A stretch of DNA of 64,000 nt from an uncultured Chloroflexia bacterium (GCA_963748625.1 CAVVJT010000008.1:32001-96000), one strand, 5' to 3'; shown: positions 16,903 through 49,286, counted from the first letter of the stretch. Numbers and translations: made by a program. Notes: generated by a model not told the origin, from the sequence alone.

Positions 16903-17553
16903 CTACCCGTTCGCGACGAGCCGGTCCTGGGTGTACTGGTAGTGCTCCCCGACCGCATGGGCGGCCGCCTCCGCGTCGCGCGCCCCGATCGCGTCCGCGA
17001 TCCGGCGGTGCAGGTCGACCGGGGGCGTCCAGGCGAGCGTGGCATGCGTTGCGAGGGCCGTCCGCATCAGCAGGACCGTCTGCGATGCGAGCCCGTCGAA
17101 CAGGTCCACCAGGCGCCGGTTGTCCGACATGCTGCAGTAGCTGCGATGGAACAGCATGTCCGCGTCCCACGCCGCGGGCAGGTCGTCGCGCCCATAGGCC
17201 GCCTCGGTCTCGGCGAGGCGCACATACATCTCGGCGATCTCGTCGTCTGTGGCCCGTGCGACGGCCGCACGAACCGCCGCCTCCTCGATGGCCCGACGGA
17301 GCACGTAGACCTCGGCAAGGTCCTTCTCCGAGAGCGAGGCGACGAAGGTTCCGCGCCGCGGGAGATCCTCTACGAGCCCTTCTCGAGCGAGCTCCGTGAG
17401 CGCGTCCCGGATGGGGCCGCGCGAGACGCCGAAGCGCTCGGCGAGATCGGTCTCCACGAGACGTGATCCGGCGGCGTAGCGGCCGTCGAGAATCTGCTCG
17501 CGGATCTCGTCGGCGATCGACTCCCACAGCTGCTTGTGCGTGAACGCTGCCAT
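16903..17553 (-). CDS. GntR family regulator (FCD domain)
   Basis: LAERFGVSRGPIRDAL...RRGTFV; D.LFH and H...ADAI...H FCD motifs. Confidence 0.92.
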   Translation of the reverse strand: MAAFTHKQLWESIADEIREQILDGRYAAGSRLVETDLAERFGVSRGPIRDALTELAREGLVEDLPRRGTFVASLSEKDLAEVYVLRRAIEEAAVRAAVARATDDEIAEMYVRLAETEAAYGRDDLPAAWDADMLFHRSYCSMSDNRRLVDLFDGLASQTVLLMRTALATHATLAWTPPVDLHRRIADAIGARDAEAAAHAVGEHYQYTQDRLVANG

Positions 17554-17619
17554 GCGCCCCACGATCCCCCCATGTTGCAATTAAGTGCCGACAGGGACTC
17601 GGCTGGCGGTCAGATTGCG

Positions 17620-17650
17620 TGTTGACATGACGATTGTCAACAGTTAGCCT
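17620..17650 (+). promoter_or_regulatory. Sigma70 promoter TTGACA-N17-TAGCCT overlapped by inverted repeat TGTTGACA-N7-TGTCAACA (putative GntR operator)
   Basis: Read directly; lies between divergent gntR and the catabolic operon. Confidence 0.75.
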
Positions 17651-17840
17651 CCCGCGGTCAGCCCCACGTGCGACGTTGCGCCCCCGCCACGGCGGGCTTG
17701 ATGTGACCAATGGACCTGTATTTCGACACTCCGGCCGTGTGGCCGATAGGACCCGGGGCGGGTAGGGTTCGGCGCCTACCCGCAACGCCACCAGTCGTCG
17801 CCGACACGTACCCGCACCCGCGATAGGAGCAGAAGCTCGA

Positions 17841-20348
17841 ATGGCTGACTTCCCGACCAGCGCCAAGGTCGTGATCATCGGCGCCGGCATCGTCGGCAAC
17901 AGCATCGCCTACCACCTCGCGCGCCTCGGCTGGAAGGACATCGTCCTGGTGGACAAGGGCCCGCTCCCCAACCCGGGCGGCTCCACCGGCCACGCATCGA
18001 ACTTCCTGTACCTCGCCGACCACAACAAGGAGATGGCGGAGCTGACGCTCGAGAGCGCCCGCCAGTACAAGGACTGGGGCGTCTACACGACGTGCGGCGG
18101 CCTTGAGGTTGCGCGCACGCAGACCCGCCTCGAGGAGATCCGCCGCAAGGTGGACTCGGCCAAGAACTGGGGCATCGACGCGTACCTCGTGAGCCCGGCC
18201 GAGATCAAGAAGCTCGTCCCGTTCATCAACGAGGAGATCCTGGTCGGCGGGTTCTACACGCCCGAGACCGGCGTCTGCGACTCGCTCCAGTTCGGCACCC
18301 TCTGCCGTGAGAAGGCCGAGGAGATGGGTGCGCTCACGAGCTTCGCGAACACCGAAGTCACCGCGATGGGCGTGGTGGACGGCCAGATCCGGAGCGTGAC
18401 CACGACGCGCGGCACCATCGAGGCCGAGTACGTGATCATCGCGGTGGGCGTCTGGGCTCCGCTCCTGGCCGAGATGGCCGGCGCGTACATCCCCCTCATC
18501 CCCGTGGTCCACCAGATGGCCGACTACGGCCCCGTGCCGCTCTTCGAGCAGTCCACCAAGGCGATCGAGTACCCGATCGTGCGCGACATGGACGTGCTCA
18601 TGTACGAGCGCCAGGACGGCATCGGCTTCGAGGTGGGCTCCTACGCCCACCGCTCCATCCTCCACGACCCGGAGACGATTCCGTCGAACGAGCAGGCGGC
18701 GCTCTCCCCGACCGAGTTCCCGTTCACCCAGGATGACTTCGACCCGCAGCTCGAGGATGCCCTCGAGCTGTTCCCCGAGATCCTGGGCGACGAGAAGGTC
18801 GGCCAGAAGTACGCCATCAACGGCCTGATCTCCCTCACGCCCGACGGCATGCCGATCCTGGGCGAGACCCCCGAGGTCAAGAACCTCTGGTCCGCCTGCG
18901 CGGTCTGGGTCAAGGAAGGCCCGGCGGTCGGCAAGGCCATCGCCGAGTGGATGACCCACGGCCAGCCGGAGATCGACTGCAACCAGAGCGACATCAGCCG
19001 CTTCCACGCCCACCAGAAGACGCGCCAGCACACCAAGGCGCGCTCCTTCGAGGCGTTCCCGAAGACCTACGGCATCGTCCACCCGGCCGAGCAGTACCAG
19101 TCCGACCGCGGCATCCGCAAGACCCCGATGTACGAGTGGCAGAAGGCCCACGACGCGGAGTTCTTCGAGGTCGTCGGCTGGGAGCGGGCCCAGTGGTACA
19201 AGTGCAACGCGCCCCTCGTTGAGAAGTACGGCGTCCTGGACCGCCCCAACGAGTGGGACGCCCGCTGGTGGAGCCCGATCATCAACGCCGAGCACCTCGC
19301 CATGCGCGAGTCGGCCGGCATCTTCGACCTCTCCGCCTTCGCCATCTTCGACATCCAGGGCCCGGGTGCCCTGGACTCGGTCCAGAAGGTCTGCGTCCGC
19401 CAGATGGACGTCGCGGTCGGCCGCGTGGTCTACACCCCGGTCCTCTCCGTCACGGGCGGCTTCAAGTCCGACCTCACCGTGATGCGCCTCGCCAGGAACC
19501 ACTTCCGCGTGGTCACCGGCGGCGCCCACGGCATGGCCGACCTGAAGTGGTTCGGGGACAACCTGGCCGAGAACGCCACGATCATCGACCTGACCACCGC
19601 CTACACGACGATCGGCCTGTGGGGTCCCAACGCCCGCAAGATCGCGCAGAAGCTGACCCGCGCCGACCTGTCCAAGGAGGCGTTCAAGTTCAGCACCTGC
19701 AAGACCATCGAGATGGGCAGCCAGCTCGTCCTGGCGTCGCGCATCAGCTACGTCGGCGACCTGGGCTGGGAGCTCTACGTCCCGATGGAGCAGGGCCAAC
19801 GCCTGTGGGACGAGATCTGGGAGGCCGGACAGGAGTTCGGCATCACCCCTTGCGGCATGGGTGTCTACGGCACCACCGGCCGCCTCGAGAAGGGCTACCG
19901 CGCGTACGGCGCCGAGCTCGACAACGACTACGACATGTTCGAAGCGGACATGACGACGCCCAGGCTCAAGGTCCAGGACTTCATCGGCCGCGCGGCCGTC
20001 GAGGCGGCCATGGGCAAGGAGCGCGCGGCAGTCTGCTGCACGCTGACCGTCGACGACCACACCAGCCCGCGGACGGGCGAGCGCCGGGTCATGCTCGGCC
20101 GCCAGCCGATCGTCCTCGAGGACGGCTCACCGATCGTGGACAGCAAGGGACGCCGGTCCTACGCCAACTCCGCCGGTGCCGGCCCCTCGCTGGGCAAGCA
20201 CCTGCTCATGGCGTACCTGCCGCCGGCCCAGGCCGTCGAGGGCACGAAGCTCTTCGTCCAGTACTTCGGCGACCTCTACCCGGTCACGGTGGCGCGCGTG
20301 GGTTCCGTCCCGCTGTTCGACCCCGAGAACGATCGCATCCGGGCCTGA
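17841..20348 (+). CDS. FAD-dependent oxidoreductase with GcvT folate-binding domain (dimethylglycine/sarcosine dehydrogenase family) #1
   Basis: IIGAGIVG, GGSTGHAS, TPDGMPILG, GWERAQW, RISYVGDLGWELY, RLEKGYR, FDPENDRIRA. Confidence 0.93.
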   Translation: MADFPTSAKVVIIGAGIVGNSIAYHLARLGWKDIVLVDKGPLPNPGGSTGHASNFLYLADHNKEMAELTLESARQYKDWGVYTTCGGLEVARTQTRLEEIRRKVDSAKNWGIDAYLVSPAEIKKLVPFINEEILVGGFYTPETGVCDSLQFGTLCREKAEEMGALTSFANTEVTAMGVVDGQIRSVTTTRGTIEAEYVIIAVGVWAPLLAEMAGAYIPLIPVVHQMADYGPVPLFEQSTKAIEYPIVRDMDVLMYERQDGIGFEVGSYAHRSILHDPETIPSNEQAALSPTEFPFTQDDFDPQLEDALELFPEILGDEKVGQKYAINGLISLTPDGMPILGETPEVKNLWSACAVWVKEGPAVGKAIAEWMTHGQPEIDCNQSDISRFHAHQKTRQHTKARSFEAFPKTYGIVHPAEQYQSDRGIRKTPMYEWQKAHDAEFFEVVGWERAQWYKCNAPLVEKYGVLDRPNEWDARWWSPIINAEHLAMRESAGIFDLSAFAIFDIQGPGALDSVQKVCVRQMDVAVGRVVYTPVLSVTGGFKSDLTVMRLARNHFRVVTGGAHGMADLKWFGDNLAENATIIDLTTAYTTIGLWGPNARKIAQKLTRADLSKEAFKFSTCKTIEMGSQLVLASRISYVGDLGWELYVPMEQGQRLWDEIWEAGQEFGITPCGMGVYGTTGRLEKGYRAYGAELDNDYDMFEADMTTPRLKVQDFIGRAAVEAAMGKERAAVCCTLTVDDHTSPRTGERRVMLGRQPIVLEDGSPIVDSKGRRSYANSAGAGPSLGKHLLMAYLPPAQAVEGTKLFVQYFGDLYPVTVARVGSVPLFDPENDRIRA

Positions 20349-20352: not shown

Positions 20353-21117
20353 ATGAAGGTTCTCGTCTGCATCAAGCGCGTCCCGGCCGTCGCCGGACGC
20401 ATCACGCTGACCGACGATGAGCGTGCGATCGACGTCAAGTACCTGGGCTACGCCATCGGCCCGCACGAGGAGTGCGCGGTCGAGGAGGCGGTGCGCCTGG
20501 TCGAGGCGAATGGCGGGGAGTCGGTGGTCTTCACCCTCGGCCCCGCCGAGGCCCTCGAGCAGCTCCGCGACGCCATGGCGATCGGGATCGGCCGGGCCAT
20601 CCACGTCGTCACCGACGGCGAGGAGTGGGACCCGCAGGCCACCGCCGGCGCGATCGTGGATGCGATACGCGCCGACGAGGCCGCGAGCGGCCCGTTCGAC
20701 CTCGTGCTCATGGGCAACGAGGCTGGCGACACCGGTGACTACCAGGTCGCGGTGCGTGTCGGCTACGCGCTGGGCCGGCCGGTCGTGACCGGCATCAAGG
20801 CCCTTGCGGCCAACGGTGGCAGCGTCCGCCTGGAGCAGGAGTCGGCGGGTGCGCGCGACGTCTACGAGGTGCCGATGCCGGCGGTCGTGGGTGTCCTCGA
20901 AGGCCTGAACCTGCCGCGGTACCCCTCGGTGCCCGGCCGGATCCGCGCCAAGAGCAAGCCGGTCGCCGGCTCCGAGCCCGCACGGCCCGGCGCGCGCCTG
21001 GAGATGGTCAAGCTCGTGGTCCCGCCGCAGACGTCCTCGCAGGCCGAGGTCCTGGGCAGCGGTCCCGAGGCCGCCCCCGCCGTCGTCGAGCTGTTGGCCA
21101 GCCTGGGGGTGCTCTAG
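20353..21117 (+). CDS. etfB: Electron transfer flavoprotein beta subunit
   Basis: MKVLVCIKRVP, ECAVEEAVRL, GNEAGDTG, NLPRYPS. Confidence 0.9.
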   Translation: MKVLVCIKRVPAVAGRITLTDDERAIDVKYLGYAIGPHEECAVEEAVRLVEANGGESVVFTLGPAEALEQLRDAMAIGIGRAIHVVTDGEEWDPQATAGAIVDAIRADEAASGPFDLVLMGNEAGDTGDYQVAVRVGYALGRPVVTGIKALAANGGSVRLEQESAGARDVYEVPMPAVVGVLEGLNLPRYPSVPGRIRAKSKPVAGSEPARPGARLEMVKLVVPPQTSSQAEVLGSGPEAAPAVVELLASLGVL

Positions 21118-22080
21118 ATGGCCGCCGTCCTCGTCTACGTCTCCACCACCGACGGCGCGCCCGACGAGGTCGCGCTGCAGGCCCTGGCCCTCGGCGCGCA
21201 GGTCGCCGCCGGCGGCCCTGTCAACGCGGTGGTCATCGGTGATGCCGCCGCAGCGGCGACGCTGGGCGCCTGGGGCGCAACCGCCGTCCACGTCGCAGAG
21301 CAGGCGGGTCTTGCCGTCATGGCGCCCGACGCTCGAGCCCGCGTCATCGCGGACCTCGCCGACCAGCTCGGCGTGGACGCGATCGTGGGTCCCGGCACCG
21401 AGGCCGGCAACACGATCCTGGCCCGTGTGGCCGCCCGCTCTGACCGGCCCTTCGCGGCCAACTGCAGCGCGGCGACGCCGGGCACGCCGCTCGCCGTCCG
21501 GCGCATCCGCTGGGGCGGCTCCCTCTCGGAGGACGCCGTGATCCACGGTGACCGCCCGATCCTGACGTCCGCCCCGCACACGCTGGCGGCCGTCGAAACC
21601 GGCGGCTCCGCTGCCGTGACGACATTTGCACCGGCCCTCGACGATGCGGACCTCGTGGTCCGGGTCGTCGACCGCACGGCGCCAGCCGCGTCCGGTGTCT
21701 CGCTTGCCGAGGCGAAGATCGTGGTGTCGGGTGGCCGTGGCGTCGGCTCCGAGGCGGGCTTCGGCCCGGTCGACGAGCTGGCAGGCCTCCTGGGCGCCGC
21801 CGTCGGCTGCTCCCGTGCCGTGACGATCGCCGGCTGGCGGTCCCACACGGCCCAGGTGGGCCAGACGGGCACCAAGATCGCGCCCGATCTCTACATCGCC
21901 GCCGGCATCAGCGGGGCAACCCAGCACATGGCCGGCTGCAAGGCATCCAAGAAGATCATCGCCATCAACAAGGACCCCGAGGCACCGATCATGGGTGACG
22001 CGGACTACGCCGTCATCGGTGACCTCCATGCCGTGCTCCCGGCCATCTCGGCCGAGATCCGGCGGGTACGCGGGTCCTAG
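21118..22080 (+). CDS. etfA: Electron transfer flavoprotein alpha subunit
   Basis: VVSGGRGVG, QVGQTG, GISGATQH, AINKDPEAPI. Confidence 0.92.
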   Translation: MAAVLVYVSTTDGAPDEVALQALALGAQVAAGGPVNAVVIGDAAAAATLGAWGATAVHVAEQAGLAVMAPDARARVIADLADQLGVDAIVGPGTEAGNTILARVAARSDRPFAANCSAATPGTPLAVRRIRWGGSLSEDAVIHGDRPILTSAPHTLAAVETGGSAAVTTFAPALDDADLVVRVVDRTAPAASGVSLAEAKIVVSGGRGVGSEAGFGPVDELAGLLGAAVGCSRAVTIAGWRSHTAQVGQTGTKIAPDLYIAAGISGATQHMAGCKASKKIIAINKDPEAPIMGDADYAVIGDLHAVLPAISAEIRRVRGS

Positions 22081-22261: not shown

Positions 22262-23634
22262 GTGATTTAGACTGGGACGAAGTATCGGATCGCAGGCCTT
22301 CTGGCCGCTGCGGCGCTCGTGGTGAGCGCGTGCGGCGGCTCGGCTGCAACCACGGCCCCGGCAACCGCCGCCCCCGCCACTGAGGCGCCCGCGGCCACGG
22401 AGGCGCCCGCCGCCAGCGATGGCGCGAGCACCGATCCGGCACGGCGTGCTCCGATGTCGCGCCGACCACCATCAAGATCGGGGTCTCCGGCCCGTTCACC
22501 GGCCCCAACGCCCTCACGGGCGAGGAGATCAAGAACTCCACCGCGATGGCCTTCGAGGCCATCGGCTCCAAGATCGGGCCGTACACCATCGAGCCCGTCT
22601 ACATCGACGACCAGTCCGACCCGGCCAAGGGCGCCGCCGCCTACGAGCAGGCGGTCGTGGGCCAGAAGATCGTCGCCGGCCTGGGTGGCTGGCACAGCTC
22701 CGTCGCAGTGGCCCAGATGGAAGTCACCGCGAAGTACAAGGTCCCGCACTTCTTCGCGATGGGCGCCACCGGCGTCGTCAACGAGAAGTTCAACAGCGAC
22801 AAGGAGAAGTACGGCTACTGGACGGTCAAGGGCTGGCCGGATCCCGCGAAGCTGACCATCGGCTACGTCCAGGCCATCGAGGACGCCATCACGGCGGGCA
22901 ACTTCTCCCCGGGCGAGAAGAAGGTCGCCATCTACGGTGAGGACACCGACTGGGGCCGCTCCTTCGGCCAGGGTCTCAAGGACCAGCTCACGGCCGTCGG
23001 CTGGACCGTCGCGAGTGAGGACTACTTCCCGACGACGCAGACCGACTTCTCGGCCATCGTCTCCCGCTACAAGAACGACAACATCCCGCTGATCGCCGGC
23101 ACCACCACGATCCCGGCCTCGATCGCATCCTTCCTCAAGGCTCTCGACGACTCCGGCGTCAAGTCCCTGGTCGTCGCCGACGGCCTCGGCTGGATCGGTG
23201 ACTGGTACAAGCTCAGCGGCTCCGCGTCCAACTACGTCGTGGACCAGATCCCGCAGTTCGCTTCCGACGCCGCGAAGAAGTTCGCCGCCGACTACGAGGC
23301 CAAGTACGGCAGCAAGCCGAGCCCGTCCGCGTCCGGCCTTTCCTACGACTTCGCCAACTACTTCATCAAGGTCGCTCAGCAGGCGCTGGCCGACTCCTGC
23401 GAGATCTCCAGCGCGTCCCTCTACAAGGTGGCCACGGAGCAGCTCTGGACCGGCAAGCTGACGTACACCGACGGCATCATCATGTCGAACTACGATTACT
23501 CGGAGGAGACCATCCCCGATCCGATCGTGGGCAAGGGCCACTACATCTTCCCGGCTCTCCAGTACATGGATGGCAACGCCACCGTGGTCTGGCCGGAGGA
23601 AGTCGCGACCGGCGGCATCCAGCAGAAGCCCTGA
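22262..23634 (+). CDS. LIV/HAAT-type ABC substrate-binding lipoprotein (TAG at codon 3; frameshift near 22440)
   Basis: GGAGGAGG SD then GTG ATT TAG ACT..., giving signal peptide KYRIAGLLAAAALVVSAC; after the shift TIKIGVSGPFTG, DDQSDP, GGWHSSV, EDTDWG. Confidence 0.8.
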
Positions 23635-23665
23635 CCTTCAACCCCAATCCCCTGACACGGGAGCC

Positions 23666-23692
23666 CTGGGGGCCGGCGCAGCCGGCCCCCAG
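23666..23692 (+). other. Intercistronic hairpin after the substrate-binding protein gene
   Basis: ctgggggccggc-gca-gccggcccccag. Confidence 0.6.
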
Positions 23693-23712
23693 GCAATCTG
23701 GCGAAGAGGCGT

Positions 23713-24441
23713 ATGGCGCTCCTTGAGCTCAACGAGGTCACCAAGCGGTTCGGTGGCCTGACCGCCGTCAACAACGTCACCTTCTCCGTCGAGGAGGGTG
23801 AGATCTTCGGCCTGATCGGTCCCAACGGGGCCGGCAAGTCGACGCTGCTCAACTGTCTCGCGGGGGCCACCAAGCCCAACGGCGGCACCGTCCGCCTCGA
23901 CGGCCAAGACACCACGGGCCTCACGGCCGACAAGATGTGCCGGCTTGGCGTGGGCCGGACCTTCCAGATCCCGCGGCCGTTCCCGGACCTCACCGTCCGC
24001 GAGAACGTCGTGGTCTCCGCGACGTTCGGCGACCCCCACATCCGCAACCACGATGTGAACGCCCGGGCCGCGGAGATGCTCGAGTACGTCGACTTCACCC
24101 GGCCGCTTGCCACGATCGCGTCGCACCTGAGCGCACTCGAGCTCAAGCGTCTCGACCTGGCCCGCGCGCTGGCCAGCAAGCCCAAGCTGCTGTTCCTCGA
24201 CGAGTTCGCCGCAGGCCTGACGCCGAGTGAGCTCGTGAACATCGCCGCCCTGCTCCGCCGCATCCGCGACGACGGCACGACGATCGTCATGGTCGAGCAC
24301 GTGATGCGGCTGATCCTCGACCTCTGCGGGCGCCTTGCGGTGCTCCAGTACGGCGAGCTCATCGCCTACGGCGAGGCGACCTCGGTCGCCCAGGACGAGC
24401 GGGTGCGCGAGGCCTACCTCGGCACTCATTACATGCTCTGA
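23713..24441 (+). CDS. LIV-type ABC ATP-binding protein (LivG-like)
   Basis: FGGLTAV, GPNGAGKST, RTFQIPRPF, FLDEFAAGL, VEHVM, EAYLG. Confidence 0.92.
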   Translation: MALLELNEVTKRFGGLTAVNNVTFSVEEGEIFGLIGPNGAGKSTLLNCLAGATKPNGGTVRLDGQDTTGLTADKMCRLGVGRTFQIPRPFPDLTVRENVVVSATFGDPHIRNHDVNARAAEMLEYVDFTRPLATIASHLSALELKRLDLARALASKPKLLFLDEFAAGLTPSELVNIAALLRRIRDDGTTIVMVEHVMRLILDLCGRLAVLQYGELIAYGEATSVAQDERVREAYLGTHYML

Positions 24442-24495
24442 GGGGTATCGGACCGCAATCCCGCCGCGGCGGATCGCAGACATCCGGAGGAAAGG

Positions 24496-25200
24496 GTGCT
24501 CCAACTCACCGGCGTCGAAGCTGGCTACGACCTCTTGCAGGTCCTGTGGGGCGTTGACCTACATGTCGAAGAGGGCGAGTTCGTGGCCCTCCTGGGCCCG
24601 AACGGCGCGGGCAAGTCGACCACGCTCCGCACCATTGCGGGCTTCGTCAAGCCCATCTCAGGCTCCATCGACTTCCGGGGCCAGTCGCTCGTGGGCGTGC
24701 CTGCCCACAAGGTGAGCACGGTCGGCCTCGGGTACGTCTCCGAGAGCCTGAACCTGTTCCCCGCGATGTCGGTCTACGAGAACCTCCTCGTCGGCGGCTA
24801 CACGATCCGCGACAAGGCCAAGATGAAGTCCACCATCGACCTCGTGTTCGAGTTGTTCCCGCGGCTCCTCGAGCGGCGTGACCAGCTCGCGGGCACCCTC
24901 AGCGGCGGCGAACGCAAGATGCTCGCCATCGGACGCGGGCTGATGCCGACACCCTCGATGCTGCTGGTGGACGAGCCGTCCCTGGGCCTCGCGCCCATGG
25001 CCACGCTGACCGCGTTCGAGGCGCTCAAGGCGCTGAGCCAGCGGGGTGTGACGATCCTGCTTGTCGAGCAGAACGTGAACACCACGCTCCGGCTCGTCGA
25101 TCGCGCCTATGTCCTGGAGCAGGGCCGCATCGTCCTTGAGGGGACGGGCGAGGAGCTGCTCGGGAACACCCACGTCCAGGAAGCCTACCTGGGGATCTGA
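24496..25200 (+). CDS. LIV-type ABC ATP-binding protein (LivF-like)
   Basis: GPNGAGKST, LFPRL, LSGGERKMLAIGR, DEPSLGLAP, VEQN. Confidence 0.93.
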   Translation: MLQLTGVEAGYDLLQVLWGVDLHVEEGEFVALLGPNGAGKSTTLRTIAGFVKPISGSIDFRGQSLVGVPAHKVSTVGLGYVSESLNLFPAMSVYENLLVGGYTIRDKAKMKSTIDLVFELFPRLLERRDQLAGTLSGGERKMLAIGRGLMPTPSMLLVDEPSLGLAPMATLTAFEALKALSQRGVTILLVEQNVNTTLRLVDRAYVLEQGRIVLEGTGEELLGNTHVQEAYLGI

Positions 25201-25207
25201 GCGACCG

Positions 25208-35425: not shown

Positions 35426-35429
35426 CCGC

Positions 35430-40191: not shown

Positions 40192-40327
40192 CGACTCCTC
40201 CACGTTCGGTGTTGCCGGCGCCTGCCGGGCCGGGGATCGCCATTGTGACCGACCGCAGGCCGTCCGCGAACCCAGGCGTGGCGGCGTGGCGGGGCGGCCC
40301 GGACCACCCCCCCGACCCCGCCTCGTT

Positions 40328-41299: not shown

Positions 41300-42084
41300 C
41301 AGATGATCCTCCGGTCAGCGAGGAAGTCGGCGATCTCACGTGCCGCGTCGGCTGCGGGCAGGTTGATGACCCGGCCCGCGGCCCGGGCGGGCGGTGGCTC
41401 CACGGCCACCACGGAGCTGGTCCAGGCGCCGTCCGCCGGGGCCAGCCCGTCTCCGAGATCGGCCAGGGACAGGCGCCGGATCTCGCGGGTCCGGGCCGCC
41501 ATGATCCCCTTGAGCGACGGGTAGCGCGGCGTGCCGAGCGCCTGGGTCCCGGTCACGACGGCCGGCATCGGGGCTTCGACAAGGTCGTACCCCTTCGCCG
41601 AGAGGCGGCGGACCTGGACGTGTCCGGCCGCCGGATCGGGCTCGATGCGCGCCGCGGCCGACAGCAGCGGCAGGCCGAGCAGCGAGGCCACCCCCGCCGC
41701 CACCACACCGCCCCCGCCGTCGGAGGTCTCGAGACCGGCGAGCAGGAGGTCGAACTCCTCCGTTCGCACGGCCGCGGCGAGGACGCGGATGGTCGTGGGG
41801 ACGTCGGCGCCGGCGAGGGCGTCGTCACACACGAGCACGCCGCGCTGGGCCCCCATCGCGAGCGCCTTGCGCATGGTGTCGATCCCATGCCCGGGCGCCA
41901 TGGTCAGGATGGCCACCTCACCGCCGTGCGCCTCCACGAGCTGCAGGGCAGCTTCGAGCGCGTACTCGTCATTGCCGTTGACGACGTTCGGCGAGGATGT
42001 CCGGTCGAGCCGGTTGTCAGGGCCCAGCTTCTCCGCCGCAATGGCGGTGTCCGGGACGGGCTTGGTCAGGACAAGGATGCGCAT
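41299..42084 (-). CDS. etfB: ETF beta subunit #2
   Basis: KPVPDT, DEYALEAAL, ALAMGA, PRYPSLKGIM. Confidence 0.92.
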   Translation of the reverse strand: MRILVLTKPVPDTAIAAEKLGPDNRLDRTSSPNVVNGNDEYALEAALQLVEAHGGEVAILTMAPGHGIDTMRKALAMGAQRGVLVCDDALAGADVPTTIRVLAAAVRTEEFDLLLAGLETSDGGGGVVAAGVASLLGLPLLSAAARIEPDPAAGHVQVRRLSAKGYDLVEAPMPAVVTGTQALGTPRYPSLKGIMAARTREIRRLSLADLGDGLAPADGAWTSSVVAVEPPPARAAGRVINLPAADAAREIADFLADRRII

Positions 42085-42091
42085 CGCCGGT

Positions 42092-44514
42092 TCAGGCGCG
42101 CGGGAGGAGGTTGGCCGGGTCGTACGCCGGCTCGGCCAGGACCACGGCCGGCCTGCGGTCGCCCAGCAATGCCACCGTGAGCTCCGTGCCCGCCGCCTCC
42201 GACCCGGTCGCGACGTACGCGAAGGCGTAGCTCCGGCCGGTCGCGTGCCCGTGCCCGCCCGACGTCGTCACGCCCACCGCGACATCGCCGGCGTACACCG
42301 GCTCACCGCCGCGCGGGTCGTAGTCGGATGCGTCCACGGCCAGCAGGACCAGGTGGGTCGCTGCGCCCTCCGCCTGCCGCGCCTCCACGGCCGCCCGGCC
42401 GCGGAAGTCGTGGTCGAAGCGGACGAACCGGAGCATGCCGGCCTCGACCGGCGTGATCTCGTTGGTCAGCTCGGCGCCCCAGCCCGCGTACCCCTTCTCA
42501 AGGCGCAGGCTGTTCATCGCGTACAGGCCGAAGTCGGCGATCCCGAACGGCTCGCCCTCGGCCCACACCGCCTCGTACACCGCGACCGCCGAGGCCATCG
42601 GCACGTGGAGCTCCCAGCCCAGCTCGCCGACGTAGTTGACCCGCAGCGCGATCACGTCCTGCCCGGCCACACGGGCGGCCTTGGCGGTGAGCCAGGGGAA
42701 GGCCTCGTTCGACAGGTCGGCGTCGGTGATCCCGGCCAGGACCTCCCGGGCCCGCGGCCCGGCCACGATCAGCGTGGTGTACGCCTCGGTCAGGTCCTCG
42801 ATCGTGACGTCCTCGCCGTCGGCCACCGCCAAGCGCAGCATGTCCAGGTCCTGCAGGTGGGCGTAGGCGCCCGACAGCACCAGGAACCGGTCGCCGGGCA
42901 GCCGGGTGATGGTCGCCTCGGTCAGGAAGCGGCCGTTGTCCGACAGGGCGTGCGCAAGCACCATGCCGCCCTCACGGCGCGGCATCCTGTTGGCGAACAC
43001 CCGCTCCAGGGCTGCGGACGCGTCAGAACCCGACACCATGTACGTCGCGAACGACGGCAGCTCCATCACGCCCACGCGCTCGCGCACGGCCCGGCACTCC
43101 TCGGCCACGACCGGGAACGCGTTCGTCCGGCGGAACGTCGGCTCCTCCTCGGTGACGCCCGCCGGCGGGAACCACTTCGGGCGCTCCCAGCCGAAGCCTT
43201 CGCCGAAGATGCAGCCCTTGGCCGCCAGCACCGGGTACAGCGGGGAGGCCTTCGCGGGACGGCCGTCGAGCCGCTCCTCGCCGGGCGGGACCAGCCGGTA
43301 CATGTCCCAGTACTCGCGGTGCGCCTTGGCCGACGCGTAGTCCTGGTCGCAGAACGGCCCGTACCGGCGCGGATCCATGCCCAGCATGTTGATCTCGGCA
43401 TCGCCGTGGACCATCTGCTGCGCGAGGAAGCGGCCGCAGCCGGGACCCTGCGCGATGCCGATGCCCGTGCCGGTGGCCAGCCAGTAGTTGCGCACGCCCG
43501 GTGCGGGTCCCACCAACGGGTTGGAGTCGGGCGTGTGCGAGATCGCCCCGTTCACGACCTTCTTGATCCCGGCCTCGGCGAAGATGGGCATGCGCTCCAT
43601 CACGCGCTCGAGGTACGGCAGGATCCGGTCCAGCTGGGGCTCGAAGAGCTCGAACGTGGAGTCCCAGGCCGGGCCGCCCTGCGCCTTCCAGGCCTCCTCG
43701 GTGTCCTCGTGCTCGTAGATGCCGATCAGGCCCGACTTCTGCTCCTGGCGGTAGTACGAGGAGCAGTGCGGGTCGCGCATGACCGGGATCTCGCCGTCGC
43801 GCTCCAGGAACTCCTTGACCGGCCCCGTCACCACGTACTGGTGCTTCATGTTCGCGAAGCGCGTCTGGACGCCCAGCCAGGCCGACACGCGATCGGCGAA
43901 GCAGCCCGCGGCGTTCACGACGTGCTCGGCGGTGACGTCGCCCTTGTCGGTGCGCACGAGGAACTCGCCCGTGGGCAGCTGCTCGATGCCCAGCACCCGG
44001 GTGTGGATCGAGATGGACGCGCCCAGGCCCTTCGCCTGCTTGGCCATCTGGTTGCAGGCGGAGCTGACGGGTCGACGTAGCCGTCGTCGAGCGTCCACGC
44101 GCCCGCCAGCACGCCCTCGGTGGTGACGTACGGGTTGATCCGCCGGATTTCCTCGGGCGAGATGACCTGCATCCGGAACCCCATCAGGTCCGACACGCCG
44201 GCGACCTTCTTGAAGTAGTCCAGCTCCAGCTGGTTCGTGGCGAAGCGGATACCGCCCGCCTGGTGCCAGCCGGTGGCCTGCGTCTCCGCCTCGAGCCGTG
44301 CGTACAGGTCGTTCGAGTAGGCGTGGACCTTGGCCAGGCTGTAGTCCGCGATGAACGACGGGCACTGTCCGGCGGCGTGCCAGGTGGAGCCCGACGTCAG
44401 CTCGCCCTTCTCGATGAGCAGGACGTCGGTCCAGCCCTCCAGCGCCAGCCCGTGGAGGAGGCCGATGCCCATGGCGCCTCCGCCGATGATCACGACGCGT
44501 GCCTGTGACTGCAT
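42092..44514 (-). CDS. FAD/GcvT-family demethylating oxidoreductase #3 (DMGDH-like), frameshift near 44068
   Basis: ORF 43915-44514 (IIGGGAMG, LTSGSTWHAAG, DGYVDP) joins ORF 42092-44365 (TPDSNPLVG, GWERPKW, YVGELGWELH, LRLEKGY). Confidence 0.87.
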
Positions 44515-44526
44515 GATCAGCCTCCC

Positions 44527-46066
44527 TCAGATGCGCCAGCGGGCGTTCCCGGGCCGCATCGCGGACCGGGGCAGCTGGATGTCGAACTGTTCCCGGAGCC
44601 GCCGGTCCGTGGTCTCGTCAATGTGCTCGGGGTAGTAGGTCGTGAGGACGTCCCGCACGCGCTCCCGTGCCCGATCGCGCACGTCGTGATAGCCATCCTC
44701 CTCCCAGGCCGTGGGAGGTCGGCGGTCGCCCACCTGCGGGTAGACGAAGTCCGTCTTCATCCGGGCCAGCGTGTCCGGCTGGCCCAGGAAGTGGCCTTCG
44801 CCTGCGACGACGTTGCGGATCACGTCGAAGGCGAGCGTCTCCTCGCTCACCTCCACGCCGCGGATCCCGCGCATGACCGAGCCAAGCATGTCGTTGTCGA
44901 TGACCAGCGCCTCGAGCGACACGGACATCAGGCTCGCCTGCATGCCGGCCGCCTCGAGCACCATCGAGGCGCCCGCTTGGGCGGCGAGGGTGATGGTGTG
45001 CCCCTTCTCGGCGCCGGCCTGCGCGTCGGGGATCTTGGCGTCGGTCATGCCCGCGGCCACGCTGCCGGGCAGGTCCCAGAACCGCAGGAGCTGCGCGCAC
45101 ACCGCGGCCATCGCGCCCTGCTCGCCGCTGCCGCCGGTCATGGCACCCGTGCGCAGGTCGGAGACGAACGGGAAGAACGAGATGGGCGCGGCACAGGCGG
45201 GGTCCAGGAGCGAGGCGAAGACGAGGCCCGCGAGTCCATCGGCGGCGGCCTGCGCCACGGTGCCCGCGAGCGTCACAGGTCCGGTCGCCCCGGCCTGGGG
45301 CGCGATCACCAAGTTGACGGGCACCCCGGCGCGGATGCCCGCCTCGAGCGCGAGGCAGGAGTCCGCGGCGAACCGCATCGGCGGCACCACGAAGGTGCAC
45401 GCGATCGACGCGATGGGCCGCTCCCGGCGCGCCCGCTCCCCGCCCGCCACCACGTCGAGGAGCTCAACGCCGCGCTGCACGCTGGCGTCGTTGACGAACG
45501 AGGCCGTGGCGTGCTTGGTGGAGCCCGCCAGCAGGGCGTACATGGTGTTGAGGTCCATCGCCTCCCAGCCGTCCACGTCGCGGGCGACCGAGGTGCGCCA
45601 GTTGAAGTGGATGTTGTCGAGGCGGTCGATGAGGCGGCTGATGTCGTAGACATCGGCGAGGGTCGAGGGGCGGGTCCGGTCCGTCCCGAAGTCCAGCATC
45701 AGCGGCGCCGCGCCGGCGGTCCCGAGGTGCACACGCCCGCCGCCGAGCAGCAGATCGTGGCGGGGGTCCTGGCCGGCCAGCAGCACGCTGCTCGGCGACC
45801 TGGCGATGACGTCCTCCAGCGAGGGCCCGCGGGATGTGCAGGCGGCCGTCGTCGTCGAGGCGGCAGCCACCCGCGGTCATCACCTCGATCATCGACGGGG
45901 TCGCACCGGCGTAGCCGATCTCGTCCGCGAGCCGCAGCGCCGTGGCGTGCAGCAGCTCCAGCTCGTGGCGGGTCAGGGGCTCGTAGCGGCCGCCCACCAG
46001 GCCGGCGGGCGCGACGGGCGCGGTCTCTCCGCTGCGGGGCCGTTCCCGTCGTCCGGTTCGCGTCAT
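44527..46066 (-). CDS. MttB superfamily methyltransferase, non-pyrrolysine, #2, frameshift near 45819
   Basis: N-terminal GGRYEPL..LHATAL..EIG joins QAGATGPVTLAG, SDLRTGAM, TDAKIPDAQAG, GHFLG. Confidence 0.85.
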
Positions 46067-46088
46067 GGCGGCCTCCCTCGCGTGGTCG

Positions 46089-48581
46089 TCAGGCCCGGAT
46101 GCGGGCGTTGGTCGGGTCGTAGGGCGCTCGCAGCGACGCGGTGGCGCCGAAGCGCTCGCCCGCGACCTCCAGCTCGTAGCGGCCGGCGTTGATCCACTCG
46201 GGGGTTGCCGGGCCGCCGTCGGTGCGCTTGACGTAGCCGAGGCCGATGGAGCGCCCGATGGTGTGGCCGAACATGGCCGAGGTGATCCAGCCCACGAGCT
46301 CGCCGTCTCGCCAGACGGGCTCGTTGTGGTACATCAGCGGCTCGTGGTCGTCGAGGACGAAGGCGACGAGGCGCCTGGTGAGGCCCGCCTCGCGCTGGCG
46401 CAGCAGGGCCTCGCGGCCGATGAAGCCGCCAGGCTTGTCCCAGGCCGCCGTGAAGCCGAGACCGGCCTCGAGGAGCGTGTCCTCGTCGCTCATGTCGTGA
46501 CCCCAGTGGCGGTACGCCTTCTCCATCCGTAGGGAGTTGAGGGCGTGGTAGCCGGCATGGCGGAGGTCGAAGGCCGCGCCCGCCTCGACGATCGCGTCGT
46601 AGATATGGGTGGCGAACTCCATCGGCGCGTAGAGCTCCCAGCCCAGCTCGCCCACGTAGGTCGTGCGGGCCGCTCGGGCGAACGCGTAGCCGAGGTCGAT
46701 CTCGCGCGCGGTCCCGAACGGGAAGGCCTCGTTGGACAGGTCCGCGTCCGTCATCGACTGCAGGAGCGCGCGCGAGCGCGGGCCCATGATGCTGATCACG
46801 GCCTCGGCGGAGGTCGTGTCGGTCAGGGTCACGTGGGCGTCGGGGTCCACGTGCTTCGCGATCCAGTCCAGGTCACGCATGGTCTGGGTGCCGGTGGTGA
46901 CGACCAGGAACCGGTCGACCGCGAGGCGCGTGACCGTCACGTCCGCCTCGACGCCACCCCACTCGTTGCAGAACTGGGTGTAGACGATGCGCCCGGGCGC
47001 CACGTCCACGTCGGCGGTGCAGATCCGGTTGAGTTCCCGCGCGGCATCGCGCCCGGCGACCTGGATCTTGCCGAAGGAGGTCTGGTCGAAGAGCGTGACG
47101 CCCTCGCGGACGGCGCGGTGCTCCTCGGCCGAGTAGGGGAACCAGTTCTGGCGGCCGTACGAGTATTCGTAGCGCGGCTCCACACCGTCGGGGGCGTACC
47201 AGTTCGCGCGCTCCCAGCCGTAGACCTCCCCGAAGCACGCGCCCTTCGCGGCCAGCCGGTCGTGGAGCGGCGAGCGGCGGATGCCGCGGGCCGTCTCGAC
47301 CTGGCGGAACGGCCAGTGCATCTCGTAGAGCAGGCCCAGGGTCTCGGTCGTGCGCTCGTGGAGGTAGCGGCGGCTGCGCTGGAACGGCATGAACCGCCGG
47401 ATGTCCACCTCCCAGAGGTCCATCGGCGGCCGCGCGTCGACCACCCAGTCGGCCACGGCCTTGCCTGCACCCGGTCCCGACGCGAAGCCGACCGAGTTGA
47501 AGCCGGCGGCGACGAAGTACCCGGGGAGCTGGGGCGCCTCGCCCAGGATGTAGCGGTCGTCGGGGGTGAAGGACTCGGGGCCGTTGAAGAAGAGCTGGAT
47601 GCCCACCTGGCCGAAGGCAGGGATCGCCTTGGCCGCGGCGAGGATGTGGGGCTCGAGGTGGTCCCAGTCCTCGGGCAGGGTCATGAAGCCGTCGTTGTCG
47701 GGGATCCCGTGCGTGGCCCAGGGCTTGGCACCTGGCTCGAAGAAGCCGACCATCAGCTTGCCGGCCTCGTTGCGCGCGTAGGTGCAGATGTCCGGCATGC
47801 GCAGGACCGGCAGGTCGGGCGCGAGGCCGGGCACTTCCTCGGTGACGAGGTAGAAGTGCTCGGCGGCATGGAGCGGGACCACGATGTCGTCCTGGGCGCC
47901 CAGCTCCCGGGCCCACATGCCGGTGCAGCTGACGACGTACTCGCACTCGATGATGCCGCGGTCCGTCTCGACGCCCGCGACCCTGCCGTCCTTGCGCAGG
48001 ATGCGCGTCACCTTCGTGTTCTCGAAGACCTGCGCGCCACCCATGCGCGCGGCCTTGGCCATCGCGAGGGTGGTGTCCACCGGGTTGGCCATGCCGTCGC
48101 CTGGGATGAAGGCGGCGCCGACCACCCCGTCGGTGTCCATCAGGGGCCACATCTCGCCGAGCCGCTCGGGCGTGATGAACTCCAGGTCCACGCCCTGCAG
48201 CTTCGCCATCGACGCACCGCGGCGGATCTCGTCCCAGCGGCCCTCGGTATGGGCGACCAGCACTGACCCGTGCTGCACGAAGCCGGTCGAGTCGCCGGTG
48301 CGCCGCTCGAGGTCGCGGAAGAGGTCCTTCGCGTAGCTCGCGAGCGCGGTCATGTTGTACGTGGCGCGGAGCTGCCCGACGAGGCCGGCGGCATGCCAGG
48401 TCGTGCCGGAGGTGAGCTTCTTGCGCTCGAGGAGGACGACGTCCGTCCAGCCGCGCTCCGTCAGGTGGAACAGGACGCTCGTGCCGACGATGCCGCCGCC
48501 GATGACGACGACGCGCGCCTGGGTCGGGAAGGCGGGGGCTCCGGTTGTCCCGGGGGCGGTGGCGGGCTGCCCGTCGTGCAT
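46089..48581 (-). CDS. FAD/GcvT-family demethylating oxidoreductase #4 (sarcosine dehydrogenase-like)
   Basis: ATG 48581 with GGAGG SD; IGGGIVG, LTSGTTWHAAG, NGPESFTPD, GWERANW, YVGELGWELY, LRMEKAYR. Confidence 0.93.
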   Translation of the reverse strand: MHDGQPATAPGTTGAPAFPTQARVVVIGGGIVGTSVLFHLTERGWTDVVLLERKKLTSGTTWHAAGLVGQLRATYNMTALASYAKDLFRDLERRTGDSTGFVQHGSVLVAHTEGRWDEIRRGASMAKLQGVDLEFITPERLGEMWPLMDTDGVVGAAFIPGDGMANPVDTTLAMAKAARMGGAQVFENTKVTRILRKDGRVAGVETDRGIIECEYVVSCTGMWARELGAQDDIVVPLHAAEHFYLVTEEVPGLAPDLPVLRMPDICTYARNEAGKLMVGFFEPGAKPWATHGIPDNDGFMTLPEDWDHLEPHILAAAKAIPAFGQVGIQLFFNGPESFTPDDRYILGEAPQLPGYFVAAGFNSVGFASGPGAGKAVADWVVDARPPMDLWEVDIRRFMPFQRSRRYLHERTTETLGLLYEMHWPFRQVETARGIRRSPLHDRLAAKGACFGEVYGWERANWYAPDGVEPRYEYSYGRQNWFPYSAEEHRAVREGVTLFDQTSFGKIQVAGRDAARELNRICTADVDVAPGRIVYTQFCNEWGGVEADVTVTRLAVDRFLVVTTGTQTMRDLDWIAKHVDPDAHVTLTDTTSAEAVISIMGPRSRALLQSMTDADLSNEAFPFGTAREIDLGYAFARAARTTYVGELGWELYAPMEFATHIYDAIVEAGAAFDLRHAGYHALNSLRMEKAYRHWGHDMSDEDTLLEAGLGFTAAWDKPGGFIGREALLRQREAGLTRRLVAFVLDDHEPLMYHNEPVWRDGELVGWITSAMFGHTIGRSIGLGYVKRTDGGPATPEWINAGRYELEVAGERFGATASLRAPYDPTNARIRA

Positions 48582-48635
48582 CGCGTTCGGCTCCTCCTGC
48601 GTACCCGGCTCCTGCGGCGAGGCCACCGGAGCGCG

Positions 48636-48662
48636 GATCATAACACCGCAATATTACAAATA
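48636..48662 (-). promoter_or_regulatory. AT-rich extended -10 promoter (TGtTATGAT) with imperfect palindrome TGTAATATTGCG
   Basis: Minus strand reads tatttgtaatattgcggtgttatgat upstream of GcvT #4. Confidence 0.5.
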
Positions 48663-48674
48663 GAAGAGGGGATC

Positions 48675-49286
48675 TCAGGCGGCCTCGGCCGGCCTGAGCA
48701 GCGCCGTCGCGGTGTCCAGGAGCAGGGCCCGGATGCGGTCCGCGTCGATGTCCGGGGCGCCCAGCGAGATGCCCACCGAGGCCCCGTCGCCGATCATGAT
48801 GAACAGGTTGACGATGTCCTCCGCCGCGAGCACCGGGTGGAAGACGCCCGCCTCGACCCCGGCCTCGATCGCATCGCGGAACGGCGGGCGCCAGGCGTCG
48901 TAGAAGCCGTCGAGCTTCGCGCGCAACACGTCGTCGCGGGCCATGGCGCAGAACTCGATCCAGATGCGACTCCGCCACAGCGCAGGCTCCGGCAGCGAGG
49001 CGCTCAGCAGCGCGACCATGCGCGACCACGGGTCGCCCTCGTCGGGGACGGCGTCGGTCCAGGTGCGCAGGCGGCGCTCGGCGGACCAGTCGAAGAGGTC
49101 CTCGATCAGGCGGTCACGGGTGTCGAAGTAGTGCTGCACCGTGCCGACGGAGACGCCGGCGGCCTCCGCGACGTCCCGCAGACGGCTTCGCTCGACACCG
49201 TGGCTGACCAGGAGGGACTCGGCGGCCGACAGGATGCGCTCGCGCTGGGCCGCCCGGAGCACCTCGTCCCGCGGCCGTCCTGCCAA
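48675..49286 (-). CDS. TetR family regulator (BetI-like C-terminus)
   Basis: LRDVAEAAGVSVGTVQHYF, RIWIEFCA; start is TTG 49286 (GGAGG SD) or ATG 49304/49349. Confidence 0.88.
   Translation of the reverse strand: MAGRPRDEVLRAAQRERILSAAESLLVSHGVERSRLRDVAEAAGVSVGTVQHYFDTRDRLIEDLFDWSAERRLRTWTDAVPDEGDPWSRMVALLSASLPEPALWRSRIWIEFCAMARDDVLRAKLDGFYDAWRPPFRDAIEAGVEAGVFHPVLAAEDIVNLFIMIGDGASVGISLGAPDIDADRIRALLLDTATALLRPAEAA

Follow-up and report, generated by a model that had tools for sequence, protein, structure and literature searches.

What kind of pathway is encoded where genes for corrinoid-dependent methyl transfer and genes for oxidative N-demethylation stand side by side, and do such genes form one system or several? 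The question is raised by a 64,000-nucleotide (nt) stretch of DNA from an uncultured Chloroflexia bacterium (GCA_963748625.1, CAVVJT010000008.1:32001-96000; hereafter the window, in which all positions are counted). Positions 16903 to 49304 hold an island with two MttB-family methyltransferase genes, four GcvT-domain flavoprotein genes, two pairs of electron-transfer flavoprotein (ETF) genes and one set of genes for a corrinoid protein, a methyltransferase II and an activase. We consider it fairly probable that this is a two-line, aerobic-type, cobalamin-dependent N-demethylation island of a soil-type Chloroflexota, with glycine betaine as the substrate of line 1 and a second quaternary amine as that of line 2.

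In line 1, MttB1 would move one methyl group of glycine betaine to the Co(I) form of the corrinoid protein, a pterin-binding methyltransferase would hand it on to tetrahydrofolate (THF), and a RACo-type activase would re-reduce corrinoid that had become oxidised. Dimethylglycine (DMG) and then sarcosine would be demethylated oxidatively by two flavoproteins of the DMGDH/DMG oxidase (DMGO) family, probably GcvT1 and GcvT2, with the carbon going to THF and the electrons to ETF. Line 2 (TetR-GcvT4-MttB2-GcvT3-ETF beta/alpha) would carry out the same three steps on the second amine with a borrowed corrinoid set. ETF would be re-oxidised by an ETF:quinone oxidoreductase (ETF-QO) and an aerobic chain encoded elsewhere. 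A LIV-type ABC system is the likely importer, and one GntR, two IclR and one TetR regulator would control separate operons. The two MttB genes, four flavoproteins and two ETF pairs fit two lines of three demethylations each; the island has a single corrinoid/methyltransferase-II/activase set, so line 2 would have to share it.

Gene content and layout of the island

Because the window has a G+C content of about 71%, which swamps plain lists of open reading frames, genes were predicted from third-position GC and compared with Pfam and NCBIfam profiles. With six-frame reading added, every gene named in a first-pass annotation of this DNA was found between 16903 and 49304. The features are listed here with coordinates, strand and supporting domains (aa, amino acids).

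16903-17580 (-): GntR/FCD regulator; Pfam GntR and FCD
17841-20348 (+): GcvT1, FAD/folate N-demethylase of the DMGDH/DMGO family, 835 aa; DAO, FAO_M, GCV_T, GCV_T_C
20353-21117 (+): ETF beta, pair 1; Pfam ETF
21118-22080 (+): ETF alpha, pair 1; Pfam ETF_alpha
22277-27297, approximately (+): LIV-type ABC importer, five genes; Peripla_BP_6, two ABC_tran, two BPD_transp_2
about 22277-23634 (+): lipoprotein binding protein of the importer; Peripla_BP_6; frame break near 22450
23713-24441 and 24496-25200 (+): two importer ATPases; ABC_tran
25208-26245 and 26245-27297 (+): two importer permeases; BPD_transp_2
27376-27870 (-): DinB_2 family protein, 4 nt downstream of MttB1; Pfam DinB_2
27875-29413 (-): MttB1, non-pyrrolysine MttB-family methyltransferase, aerobic MtgB clade; MTTB, 763.6 bits, full profile
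29410-31560 (-): RACo-type ASKHA reductive activase; RACo_linker, Raco_middle, RACo_C_ter
31571-32470 (-): pterin-binding methyl-corrinoid:THF methyltransferase; Pterin_bind, 100.5 bits
32605-33253 (-): corrinoid (cobalamin-binding) carrier protein, 216 aa; six-frame reading, with D-I-H-D-I-G
33443-34168 (+): IclR1 regulator; Pfam
34268-35425 (+): MDR-family oxidoreductase; ADH_N, ADH_zinc_N
35430-36611 (-): enolase-superfamily (MR/MLE) enzyme, downstream of GcvT2; MR_MLE_N/C
36706-39222 (-): GcvT2, DMGO-like FAD/folate N-demethylase, 838 aa; DAO, FAO_M, GCV_T, GCV_T_C
39442-40203 (-): IclR2 regulator; Pfam
40328-41299 (-): ETF alpha, pair 2; Pfam
41299-42084 (-): ETF beta, pair 2; Pfam
42092-44514 (-): GcvT3, DMGDH-like FAD/folate N-demethylase; DAO, FAO_M, GCV_T, GCV_T_C; frame break near 44065
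44527-46066 (-): MttB2, non-pyrrolysine MttB-family methyltransferase, uncharacterised clade; MTTB; frame break near 45820
46089-48641 (-): GcvT4, DMGDH-like FAD/folate N-demethylase, 850 aa; DAO, FAO_M, GCV_T, GCV_T_C
48675-49304 (-): TetR regulator with BetI-type C-terminal domain, first gene of its run; TetR_N, TetR_C_6

These genes form at least five transcription units with four different regulators. On the plus strand, GcvT1 is followed after 4 nt by ETF beta 1, which directly abuts ETF alpha 1 (0 nt), and the ABC importer comes next; the GntR gene is divergent from GcvT1. A minus-strand block runs from the corrinoid protein through the pterin methyltransferase, RACo and MttB1 to DinB_2, spaced at 134, 10, -4 and 4 nt; IclR1 is transcribed away from the corrinoid gene and is followed by the MDR gene. 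Another minus-strand block consists of IclR2, GcvT2 and the enolase gene. The minus-strand run of TetR, GcvT4, MttB2, GcvT3, ETF beta 2 and ETF alpha 2, separated by 33, 22, 12, 7 and -1 nt, is almost certainly a single operon.

The first-pass annotation had ended the island at 49286. The TetR gene it placed there is present, but its start is more likely at 49304, and the likeness to BetI claimed for it holds for the type of C-terminal domain and is weak otherwise (41.7 bits against a cut-off of 201.3). As had been said of the window, Pfam found no Rieske domain and no S-methyl_trans (homocysteine methyltransferase) domain in its scanned genes. An Rfam scan of the window for riboswitches gave one tRNA and nothing else, and a promoter and terminator scan of 32400-49600 gave nothing above chance.

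MttB1, its corrinoid cassette and the flavoproteins

MttB1 scored 732.5 bits against PDB entry 4yyc, which we take to be from Sinorhizobium meliloti, 420 bits against Desulfitobacterium hafniense MtgB (2qne/9yce) and 107 bits against the pyrrolysine enzyme. It has no in-frame TAG and carries Leu at the pyrrolysine (Pyl) position. Against the NCBIfam model trimeth_pyl, the two MttB genes of the island gave 263 and 293 bits, below the cut-off of 525. Over residues 28-510, MttB1 is 65% identical to a gene of the S. meliloti mtg locus, whose neighbours in the annotated record are genes for a cobalamin-binding protein, DUF1638, a formyl transferase, MTHFR, a methyl-THF:cobalamin methyltransferase, an ASKHA protein and bmt. 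Identity to the corresponding neighbours is 76% for the corrinoid protein, 63% for the pterin methyltransferase and 58% for RACo. This is the gene arrangement given for MtgBCDE of S. meliloti by Mausz et al. (2025; PMC12478193). The pterin methyltransferase exceeded the cut-off of model NF005719 (348 against 259 bits) and would fill the role of MtgD in aerobes or MtgA in Desulfitobacterium. The corrinoid protein gave 202 and 178 bits with MtgC-type models, below their cut-offs, and 181 bits with pyl_corrinoid, and the activase gave 375 bits with an AcsV-like model whose cut-off is 800.

In MtgB, mutagenesis and a ligand-bound structure identify Y97, R312, H348 and F356 as the residues that bind glycine betaine (Picking et al. 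2026; PMC13080624). We mapped MttB1 by HMMER alignment to 9yce, the index of which equals the paper's numbering minus 2. Y128, R342 and H378 of MttB1 align with Y97, R312 and H348, so three of the four betaine-binding residues are kept. The Tyr, Arg and His equivalents were invariant in all 75 members of the MttB1 clade examined, that is, in the 80 loci described below minus five whose alignments had no piece that both spanned 430 or more columns and reached 60% identity. Among the nine MttB genes of the genome, MttB1 alone has this triad. Because of the orthology to the S. meliloti mtg gene and the conserved triad, glycine betaine is our best guess for the substrate of MttB1, and we rate it somewhat better than even.

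All four GcvT proteins have the DAO, FAO_M, GCV_T and GCV_T_C domains and a His in the N-terminal flavin motif, presumably the site of covalent FAD attachment. The motif is S-T-G-H-A-S in GcvT1 and GcvT2 and T-W-H-A-A-G in GcvT3 and GcvT4 (residue 82 in GcvT4). GcvT1 and GcvT2 are 53% identical to each other, and every other pair is 31-34% identical. Against Arthrobacter DMG oxidase (1pj5), GcvT1 and GcvT2 scored 493 and 537 bits, and against mitochondrial (human) DMGDH 307 and 266 bits; for GcvT3, of which the C-terminal 651 aa alone were used, and GcvT4 the scores were 251 and 395 bits with the oxidase and 461 and 452 bits with human DMGDH (5l46). The proteins of ETF pair 2 are 40% and 32% identical to those of pair 1. 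An ETF-QO gene lies elsewhere in the genome, beside a third ETF pair, and a haem-copper oxidase (COX1) is also encoded, so a route from ETF through quinone to oxygen exists in this organism.

To describe linkage in relatives we used the 80 best MttB1 loci from species-representative genomes, 49 of which have at least 8 kb on both sides. Hits within 10 kb were counted if they covered at least 50% of the query and, for cassette proteins, were also at least 50% identical. RACo was found near MttB1 in 43 of the 49 loci, the pterin methyltransferase in 41, the corrinoid protein in 39 and all three in 36. Any GcvT flavoprotein was present in 18, ETF alpha in 10, and a GcvT flavoprotein or ETF in 27; an MttB2-type gene was present in two. 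GcvT1-ETF1 abuts the cassette in loci L007 and L019, and a 77% orthologue of GcvT2 abuts MttB1 in G098/L001. In two genomes of the same genus, G062 and G098, the MttB1 cassette, GcvT2, TetR-MttB2-GcvT3, GcvT4 and the LIV importer lie within about 40 kb in a changed order, and in G062 this region also holds GntR-GcvT1-ETF1 and the MDR gene. Unlinked sub-clusters in relatives would have told against the first reading of one island; at genus level they are linked in both relatives, though shuffled. Beyond the genus, the association of the cassette with flavoprotein or ETF genes is all that holds.

The closest MttB1 loci (73-83% identity) are labelled Chloroflexota, Limnocylindria or 'Chloroflexia'; Gaiellales and Thermoleophilia come next, and then Proteobacteria at 65-71%. 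At E <= 1e-150, orthologues of MttB1 occur in 45 of 300 other genomes sampled from the class, all of them in its own family (45 of 91), and in none of 209 genomes of four other families of the class. Aerobic B12-dependent betaine breakdown, shown so far in marine Proteobacteria, would then extend to common soil and freshwater Chloroflexota, and its frequency in the family would imply a cobalamin demand for osmolyte turnover in soils.

MttB2 and its clade

MttB2 is 27% identical to MttB1. It matched the MTTB profile with 334 bits over positions 85-490 and is about equally similar to the pyrrolysine MttB 7xcl (176 bits) and to MtgB (169 bits). None of the four betaine-binding residues of MtgB is kept: Gly stands at Y97, Ser at R312, Glu at H348 and Leu at F356. 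A Met of MttB2 aligns with the X (Pyl) of chain 7xcl. The same signature runs through the 117 homologues of at least 470 aa among the 120 matches listed (the window's own truncated protein and two short ones were dropped). Y97 is replaced by Gly in 117, R312 by Ser in 102, Gly in 10, Ala in three and Cys in two, H348 by Glu in 116 and F356 by Leu in 117, with Met at the Pyl position in 116. Pyrrolysine was considered for the MttB2-like genes of G062, G227 and G008 and rejected; their TAG codons proved to be the stops at the gene ends, and the Pyl position is occupied by Met.

According to PMC13080624, MtcB, MtpB, MthB and MtyB retain R312 for an acidic group, so that the acid-binding Arg is conserved in MtgB and in the four other characterised quaternary-amine members aligned there, and the H348E substitution abolishes MtgB activity. 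The predicted pocket of MttB2 does not look like a carboxylate-betaine site. Since it is without the carboxylate-binding residues of MtgB, its substrate is probably one without a carboxylate, and choline would be our first guess. It is possible, and we put it forward tentatively, that the MttB2 clade represents a new substrate class and that, together with two flavoproteins and ETF, it makes up a self-contained oxygenase-free module that borrows the glycine betaine corrinoid shuttle and converts a trimethylammonium compound without a carboxylate to a primary amine. If this is true, the module is spread over soil Chloroflexota, marine Actinomycetota and Alphaproteobacteria, including Ruegeria pomeroyi and S. 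meliloti.

The clade is widespread and uncharacterised. A GcvT3-like gene adjoins the MttB2-type gene on the same strand in 12 of the 24 metagenome loci with 46% identity or more and flanks of at least 2.6 kb on either side, in none of nine loci below 46% identity, and in 28 of 80 loci overall. On a plasmid of Roseovarius indicus the order is LysR, MttB (56%) and GcvT3-like (54%), and in S. meliloti it is LysR, DMGDH-family genes and then MttB (46%; LZK74_28410). The R. pomeroyi DSS-3 megaplasmid (L169, NC_006569.1, 339974-350270) has LysR, MttB (50%; SPO_RS21400), a class-III aminotransferase, two DMGDH-family genes and a thiamine pyrophosphate (TPP) enzyme. Its gene content suggests a route in which a trimethylammonium compound would lose all its methyl groups, and the resulting primary amine would be transaminated and then enter a reaction that depends on TPP. 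Loci L147 and L094, like the R. pomeroyi megaplasmid and S. meliloti, have an MttB2-type gene together with two DMGDH-family genes. Elsewhere in the clade the neighbours include a sulfatase (L121) and IclR regulators (L113, L158); they vary and give no single answer as to substrate. Our literature search, which left most subscription journals outside, found no paper on the MttB2 signature or on this type of locus in Chloroflexota. It turned up nothing on entry 4YYC and, on MttB together with dimethylglycine dehydrogenase, a paper about methanogenesis at cold seeps. We regard MttB2 as the more useful lead, since it joins a residue signature and a conserved gene partnership to an unassigned specificity. 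Homologues are carried by the cultured R. pomeroyi, Roseovarius indicus and S. meliloti, and the substrate should therefore be within reach of ordinary genetics and enzyme assays.

Alternative readings, known systems and the rest of the genome

Several observations weigh against the two-line reading; those that also favour an alternative are given with it further on. The position of MtgB F356 is G386 in MttB1, and an invariant Trp four residues upstream of it (W382; 75 of the 75 clade members) may or may not replace the Phe. In R. pomeroyi, MtgC and MtgD are needed for glycine betaine use, and the knockouts in the available text of Mausz et al. (2025; PMC12478193) are of mtgC and mtgD only, with MtgB1 and MtgB2 (SPO2108 and SPO2134) resting on proteomics. 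The window has no MTHFR, DUF1638 or ETF-QO gene. An oxygenase-free pathway removing every methyl group, as first proposed for this DNA, is consistent in its mechanism with the homologies, the active-site residues of MttB1 and the gene order, but it is not complete in cis. All three genes were found elsewhere in the genome. DUF1638 occurs at three places on contig C10, and MTHFR is represented by weak matches and by an MTHFR C-terminal-domain gene on C10, beside another corrinoid cluster.

Three island genes are present as annotated but frame-broken in this assembly, and if the breaks are real, line 2 and the importer would be pseudogenes in this strain. In GcvT3 the frame changes near 44065, which leaves the N-terminal DAO half (profile positions 1-149), on the upstream side, out of frame with the rest. 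In MttB2 it changes near 45820, again with the upstream part, the first 84 profile positions (4-84 matched), out of frame. In the binding protein the signal peptide, with its lipobox, does not share the frame of the mature part; the break is near 22450, and ACG stands where the start codon is expected (22277). Such decay would suit the location of all three breaks inside the island, two of them in adjacent genes, and the sites in GcvT3 and MttB2, neither of which is a long homopolymer. Few genomes of the class, moreover, have an MttB2 orthologue (at E <= 1e-100, 4 of the 300 sampled), which would fit a patchy, dispensable module. Third-position GC stays at 0.86-0.97 across the broken genes, however, and splitting is not confined to the island. 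Of seven family searches in the same genome, four gave matches split into two adjacent pieces (C5, C4 and C10), and in G062, an assembly of the same genus with 7 contigs, it is GcvT1 and ABC2 that are split. A short-read contig from another sample (run X4) is without two bases at 44066 and so restores the GcvT3 frame, at a depth of 2, which is weak. In no read run were half or more of the sequence words at the frame breaks present (best 0.24), and the read contigs covered the 44066 site once, at that depth, and the 45820 site hardly at all. In locus L001 the orthologues are intact (MttB2, 514 aa, 16258-17802; GcvT3, 806 aa), and further MttB2 homologues have about 511 aa. Because the orthologues are intact and other genes of this assembly (4.6 Mb, 10 contigs) are split, assembly errors are the likeliest cause of the breaks, and we think partial decay rather unlikely.

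A second alternative keeps both lines and exchanges their substrates. The MttB2 operon would be a full route from glycine betaine to glycine in which betaine is bound unlike in MtgB, and MttB1 would act with GcvT1 and GcvT2 on proline betaine, beta-alanine betaine or another carboxylate betaine. Of the four paralogues, the two encoded in the MttB2 operon come closest to mitochondrial DMGDH (GcvT3, 461 bits over 651 aa; GcvT4, 452 bits), and the TetR of that operon has a BetI-type domain. In locus L090 the MttB2-GcvT3 pair adjoins sarcosine-oxidase-like (SoxA/SoxB-like) genes. In both L090 and L101 its neighbours include ADP-forming CoA ligase, acyl-CoA dehydrogenase and enoyl-CoA hydratase (ECH) genes, and L101 has 3-hydroxyacyl-CoA dehydrogenase (3HCDH) and BKACE genes as well. 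These neighbours would fit glycine betaine as the substrate of MttB2; the CoA ligase, dehydrogenase and hydratase genes resemble what we take to be genes of carnitine and gamma-butyrobetaine catabolism. The residues speak the other way. Gly, Ser, Glu and Leu at the MtgB sites recur across the 117 homologues in the numbers given above, and a Glu at H348 is the change that abolished MtgB activity (PMC13080624). It is MttB1, and not MttB2, whose orthologue belongs to the mtgBCDE locus of S. meliloti, and GcvT1 and GcvT2 are equally close to a proven DMG oxidase. We judge an exchange of substrates unlikely.

Four regulators and at least five transcription units would also be expected of a mere neighbourhood, in which independent operons serve different N-methylated compounds and have only cofactors in common, with the enolase, MDR, DinB and importer genes unrelated. 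The order of the modules is shuffled among this genome (G000), G062 and G098, and the genome as a whole has nine MttB-family, eight corrinoid-protein, five pterin methyltransferase and three RACo homologues. The first-pass annotation had counted the importer, the MDR gene and the enolase gene as parts of the island. The importer and the MDR gene are kept in the same-genus islands, but outside the genus, among the 49 MttB1 surroundings, the LIV importer was found in none, the MDR gene in none and the enolase homologue in one. Against chance proximity, the three genomes of the genus that carry MttB2 all have the modules clustered in about 40 kb, however shuffled, and in 27 of the 49 loci, which come from different phyla, MttB1 has a flavoprotein or ETF gene no more than 10 kb away. 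Nor does the MttB2 operon encode a corrinoid protein, a methyltransferase II or an activase. A neighbourhood without a pathway is in our opinion distinctly unlikely.

Very unlikely, finally, is a corrinoid protein and pterin methyltransferase that serve mainly as a split methionine synthase, like MtgC and MtgD of R. pomeroyi, with betaine demethylation as a side role: the mtgC and mtgD mutants are methionine auxotrophs (Mausz et al. 2025; PMC12478193) and a stand-alone homocysteine S-methyltransferase gene exists (261.8 bits, 344-aa frame), but that gene is on another contig, C7, with none in the window, a second S-methyl_trans match in a 797-aa frame on C3 is read as a MetH-type gene, the genome has seven other corrinoid-protein homologues, and the cassette is embedded among catabolic flavoproteins under IclR control.

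The first-pass annotation knew of no characterised locus with this whole combination of genes in this kind of organism. The combination itself has a precedent in print. PMC12478193 describes aerobic MtgBCD and states that in Alpha-, Gamma- and Deltaproteobacteria mtgBCD often has the genes of the subsequent demethylations close by, and the cassette is orthologous to the S. meliloti locus treated there. The core system has been known since 2025; what this locus adds is the two-line layout, the residue signature of the MttB2 clade and cultured carriers for tests. With the aerobic MtgBCD(E) systems of R. pomeroyi DSS-3, Phaeobacter inhibens and S. meliloti (PMC12478193), the island shares the same four parts, at 58-76% identity to S. 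meliloti, an aerobic host (COX1) and co-located later demethylase genes, as in several marine groups. Unlike them, it belongs to a Chloroflexota rather than a Pseudomonadota, is without DUF1638, MetF2 and MtgE in cis according to the window scans, and adds DinB_2, IclR and a further MttB line that has flavoproteins and ETF to itself.

The flavoproteins resemble mitochondrial DMGDH/SARDH with ETF and ETF-QO, and Arthrobacter globiformis DMG oxidase (5L46, 4PAA, 1PJ5), in their four-domain architecture, in the adjacent ETF genes and in the ETF-QO of the genome. The island differs from these systems in having four paralogues together, 31-53% mutually identical. We know of no solved SARDH structure for comparison. 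The GbcAB-DgcAB-SoxBDAG route of Pseudomonas and the BHMT route of SAR11 achieve the same overall conversion of glycine betaine to glycine and use ETF at the dimethylglycine step, whereas the window has neither a Rieske oxygenase nor a homocysteine methyltransferase and a Co(I) nucleophile would take the first methyl. Desulfitobacterium stops at dimethylglycine, and its MtgA belongs to another fold family than the THF methyltransferase of the island, which is of the Pterin_bind type (MetH/AcsE-like). The island further differs from D. hafniense in the Gly of MttB1 at F356 and in its four flavoproteins and ETF, and shares with it the logic of substrate methyltransferase, corrinoid protein and THF methyltransferase (MtgB/MtgC/MtgA; 2QNE, 9YCE; PMC13080624). 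For line 2, the closest parallel in design is Eubacterium limosum, where the several MttB enzymes MtpB, MtcB, MtyB and MthB appear to share one corrinoid/methyltransferase/activase set, as is said of these paralogues in PMC12478193. Those enzymes keep the R312 equivalent (PMC13080624), a position at which the MttB2 clade has Ser, Gly, Ala or Cys; the clade also carries Glu at H348.

The regulators suggest some ties between the operons. The intergenic region of GntR and GcvT1 contains a perfect inverted repeat, TGTTGACA-N7-TGTCAACA (17620-17642), which is unique in the window and a likely operator for GntR; orthologues of this regulator (70-71%) adjoin GcvT1 orthologues in L007 and G062. IclR1 is 50% identical to IclR2, and an IclR1 orthologue of at least 50% identity occurs in 16 of the 49 full-flank MttB1 loci. 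The sequence CGGAACAAT lies at 33348-33356, between IclR1 and the corrinoid gene, and the palindrome ATCGTTCCG-N5-CGGAACGAT at 39402-39424, between IclR2 and GcvT2. The half-site CGGAACRAT occurs five times in the window against 0.84 expected, with three copies in the two IclR-adjacent intergenic regions. In relatives, the hexamer was present in the spacer between IclR1 and the corrinoid gene in only 12 of 24 cases and the full palindrome in two. The half-site is a candidate for a common IclR operator joining the corrinoid operon to the GcvT2 operon, and is suggestive only. TetR orthologues (72-74%) adjoin MttB2 in G062 and G098.

Orthologues of the importer (72-86%) stand beside TetR-MttB2 in G062 and beside GcvT4-GcvT3-MttB2-TetR in G098. 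A 73% orthologue of the MDR protein comes after ETF alpha 1 in G062; the MDR protein itself scored 151 bits with a PIG3-type model, below the cut-off. In eight of the 80 loci, MttB1 has a DinB_2 homologue (40% identity or more) as its neighbour. For the enolase-superfamily enzyme the best PDB matches were uncharacterised structures (149 bits), and the best NCBIfam match was cis-3-hydroxy-L-proline dehydratase at 103 bits against a cut-off of 500. A role as proline-betaine or hydroxyproline-betaine epimerase is not supported, with 62 bits to 2pmq, which we take to be the proline-betaine epimerase entry, and no homologue in the pieces of G062 and G098 examined.

At the edge of the island, a multicopper-oxidase/cupredoxin gene at 49512-50876 (-) adjoins TetR. 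Its 67% orthologue adjoins IclR1 at the other end of the rearranged island in L001, and it looks as if the island's interior had been inverted or rearranged while the flanks stayed in place. Ten kb downstream of the island, a serine hydroxymethyltransferase gene at 59056-60390 (+) lies among the housekeeping genes RF1, PrmC and Sua5; it is probably an ordinary glyA, and its product would take up glycine and methylene-THF made by the island.

MttB genes also occur outside the window. On C7 (615491-618382; L083:7480-10389, -), two tandem MTTB domains share one 969-aa open frame, possibly a genuine fusion, possibly two genes that the assembly has wrongly run together; in its vicinity are an SBP_bac_8 ABC importer, an AIR-synthase-like gene and a third MttB gene. 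On C10 (980000-992000; L081), a second corrinoid cluster has a layout like that of the S. meliloti mtg locus, with genes for a URO-D-like methyltransferase, DUF1638, Pterin_bind, an MTHFR C-terminal domain, RACo (538 aa), a corrinoid protein and two MttB proteins without the betaine-binding triad. In the second of these MttB genes an in-frame TAG falls near profile position 125-138, away from the site that pyrrolysine would occupy. On C5 (75000-79000; L082), there is an MttB gene with 41% identity to MttB1 and, of the betaine-binding residues, the R312 equivalent alone. It is divergent from another GcvT-type flavoprotein gene, and both are split into two pieces in this assembly.

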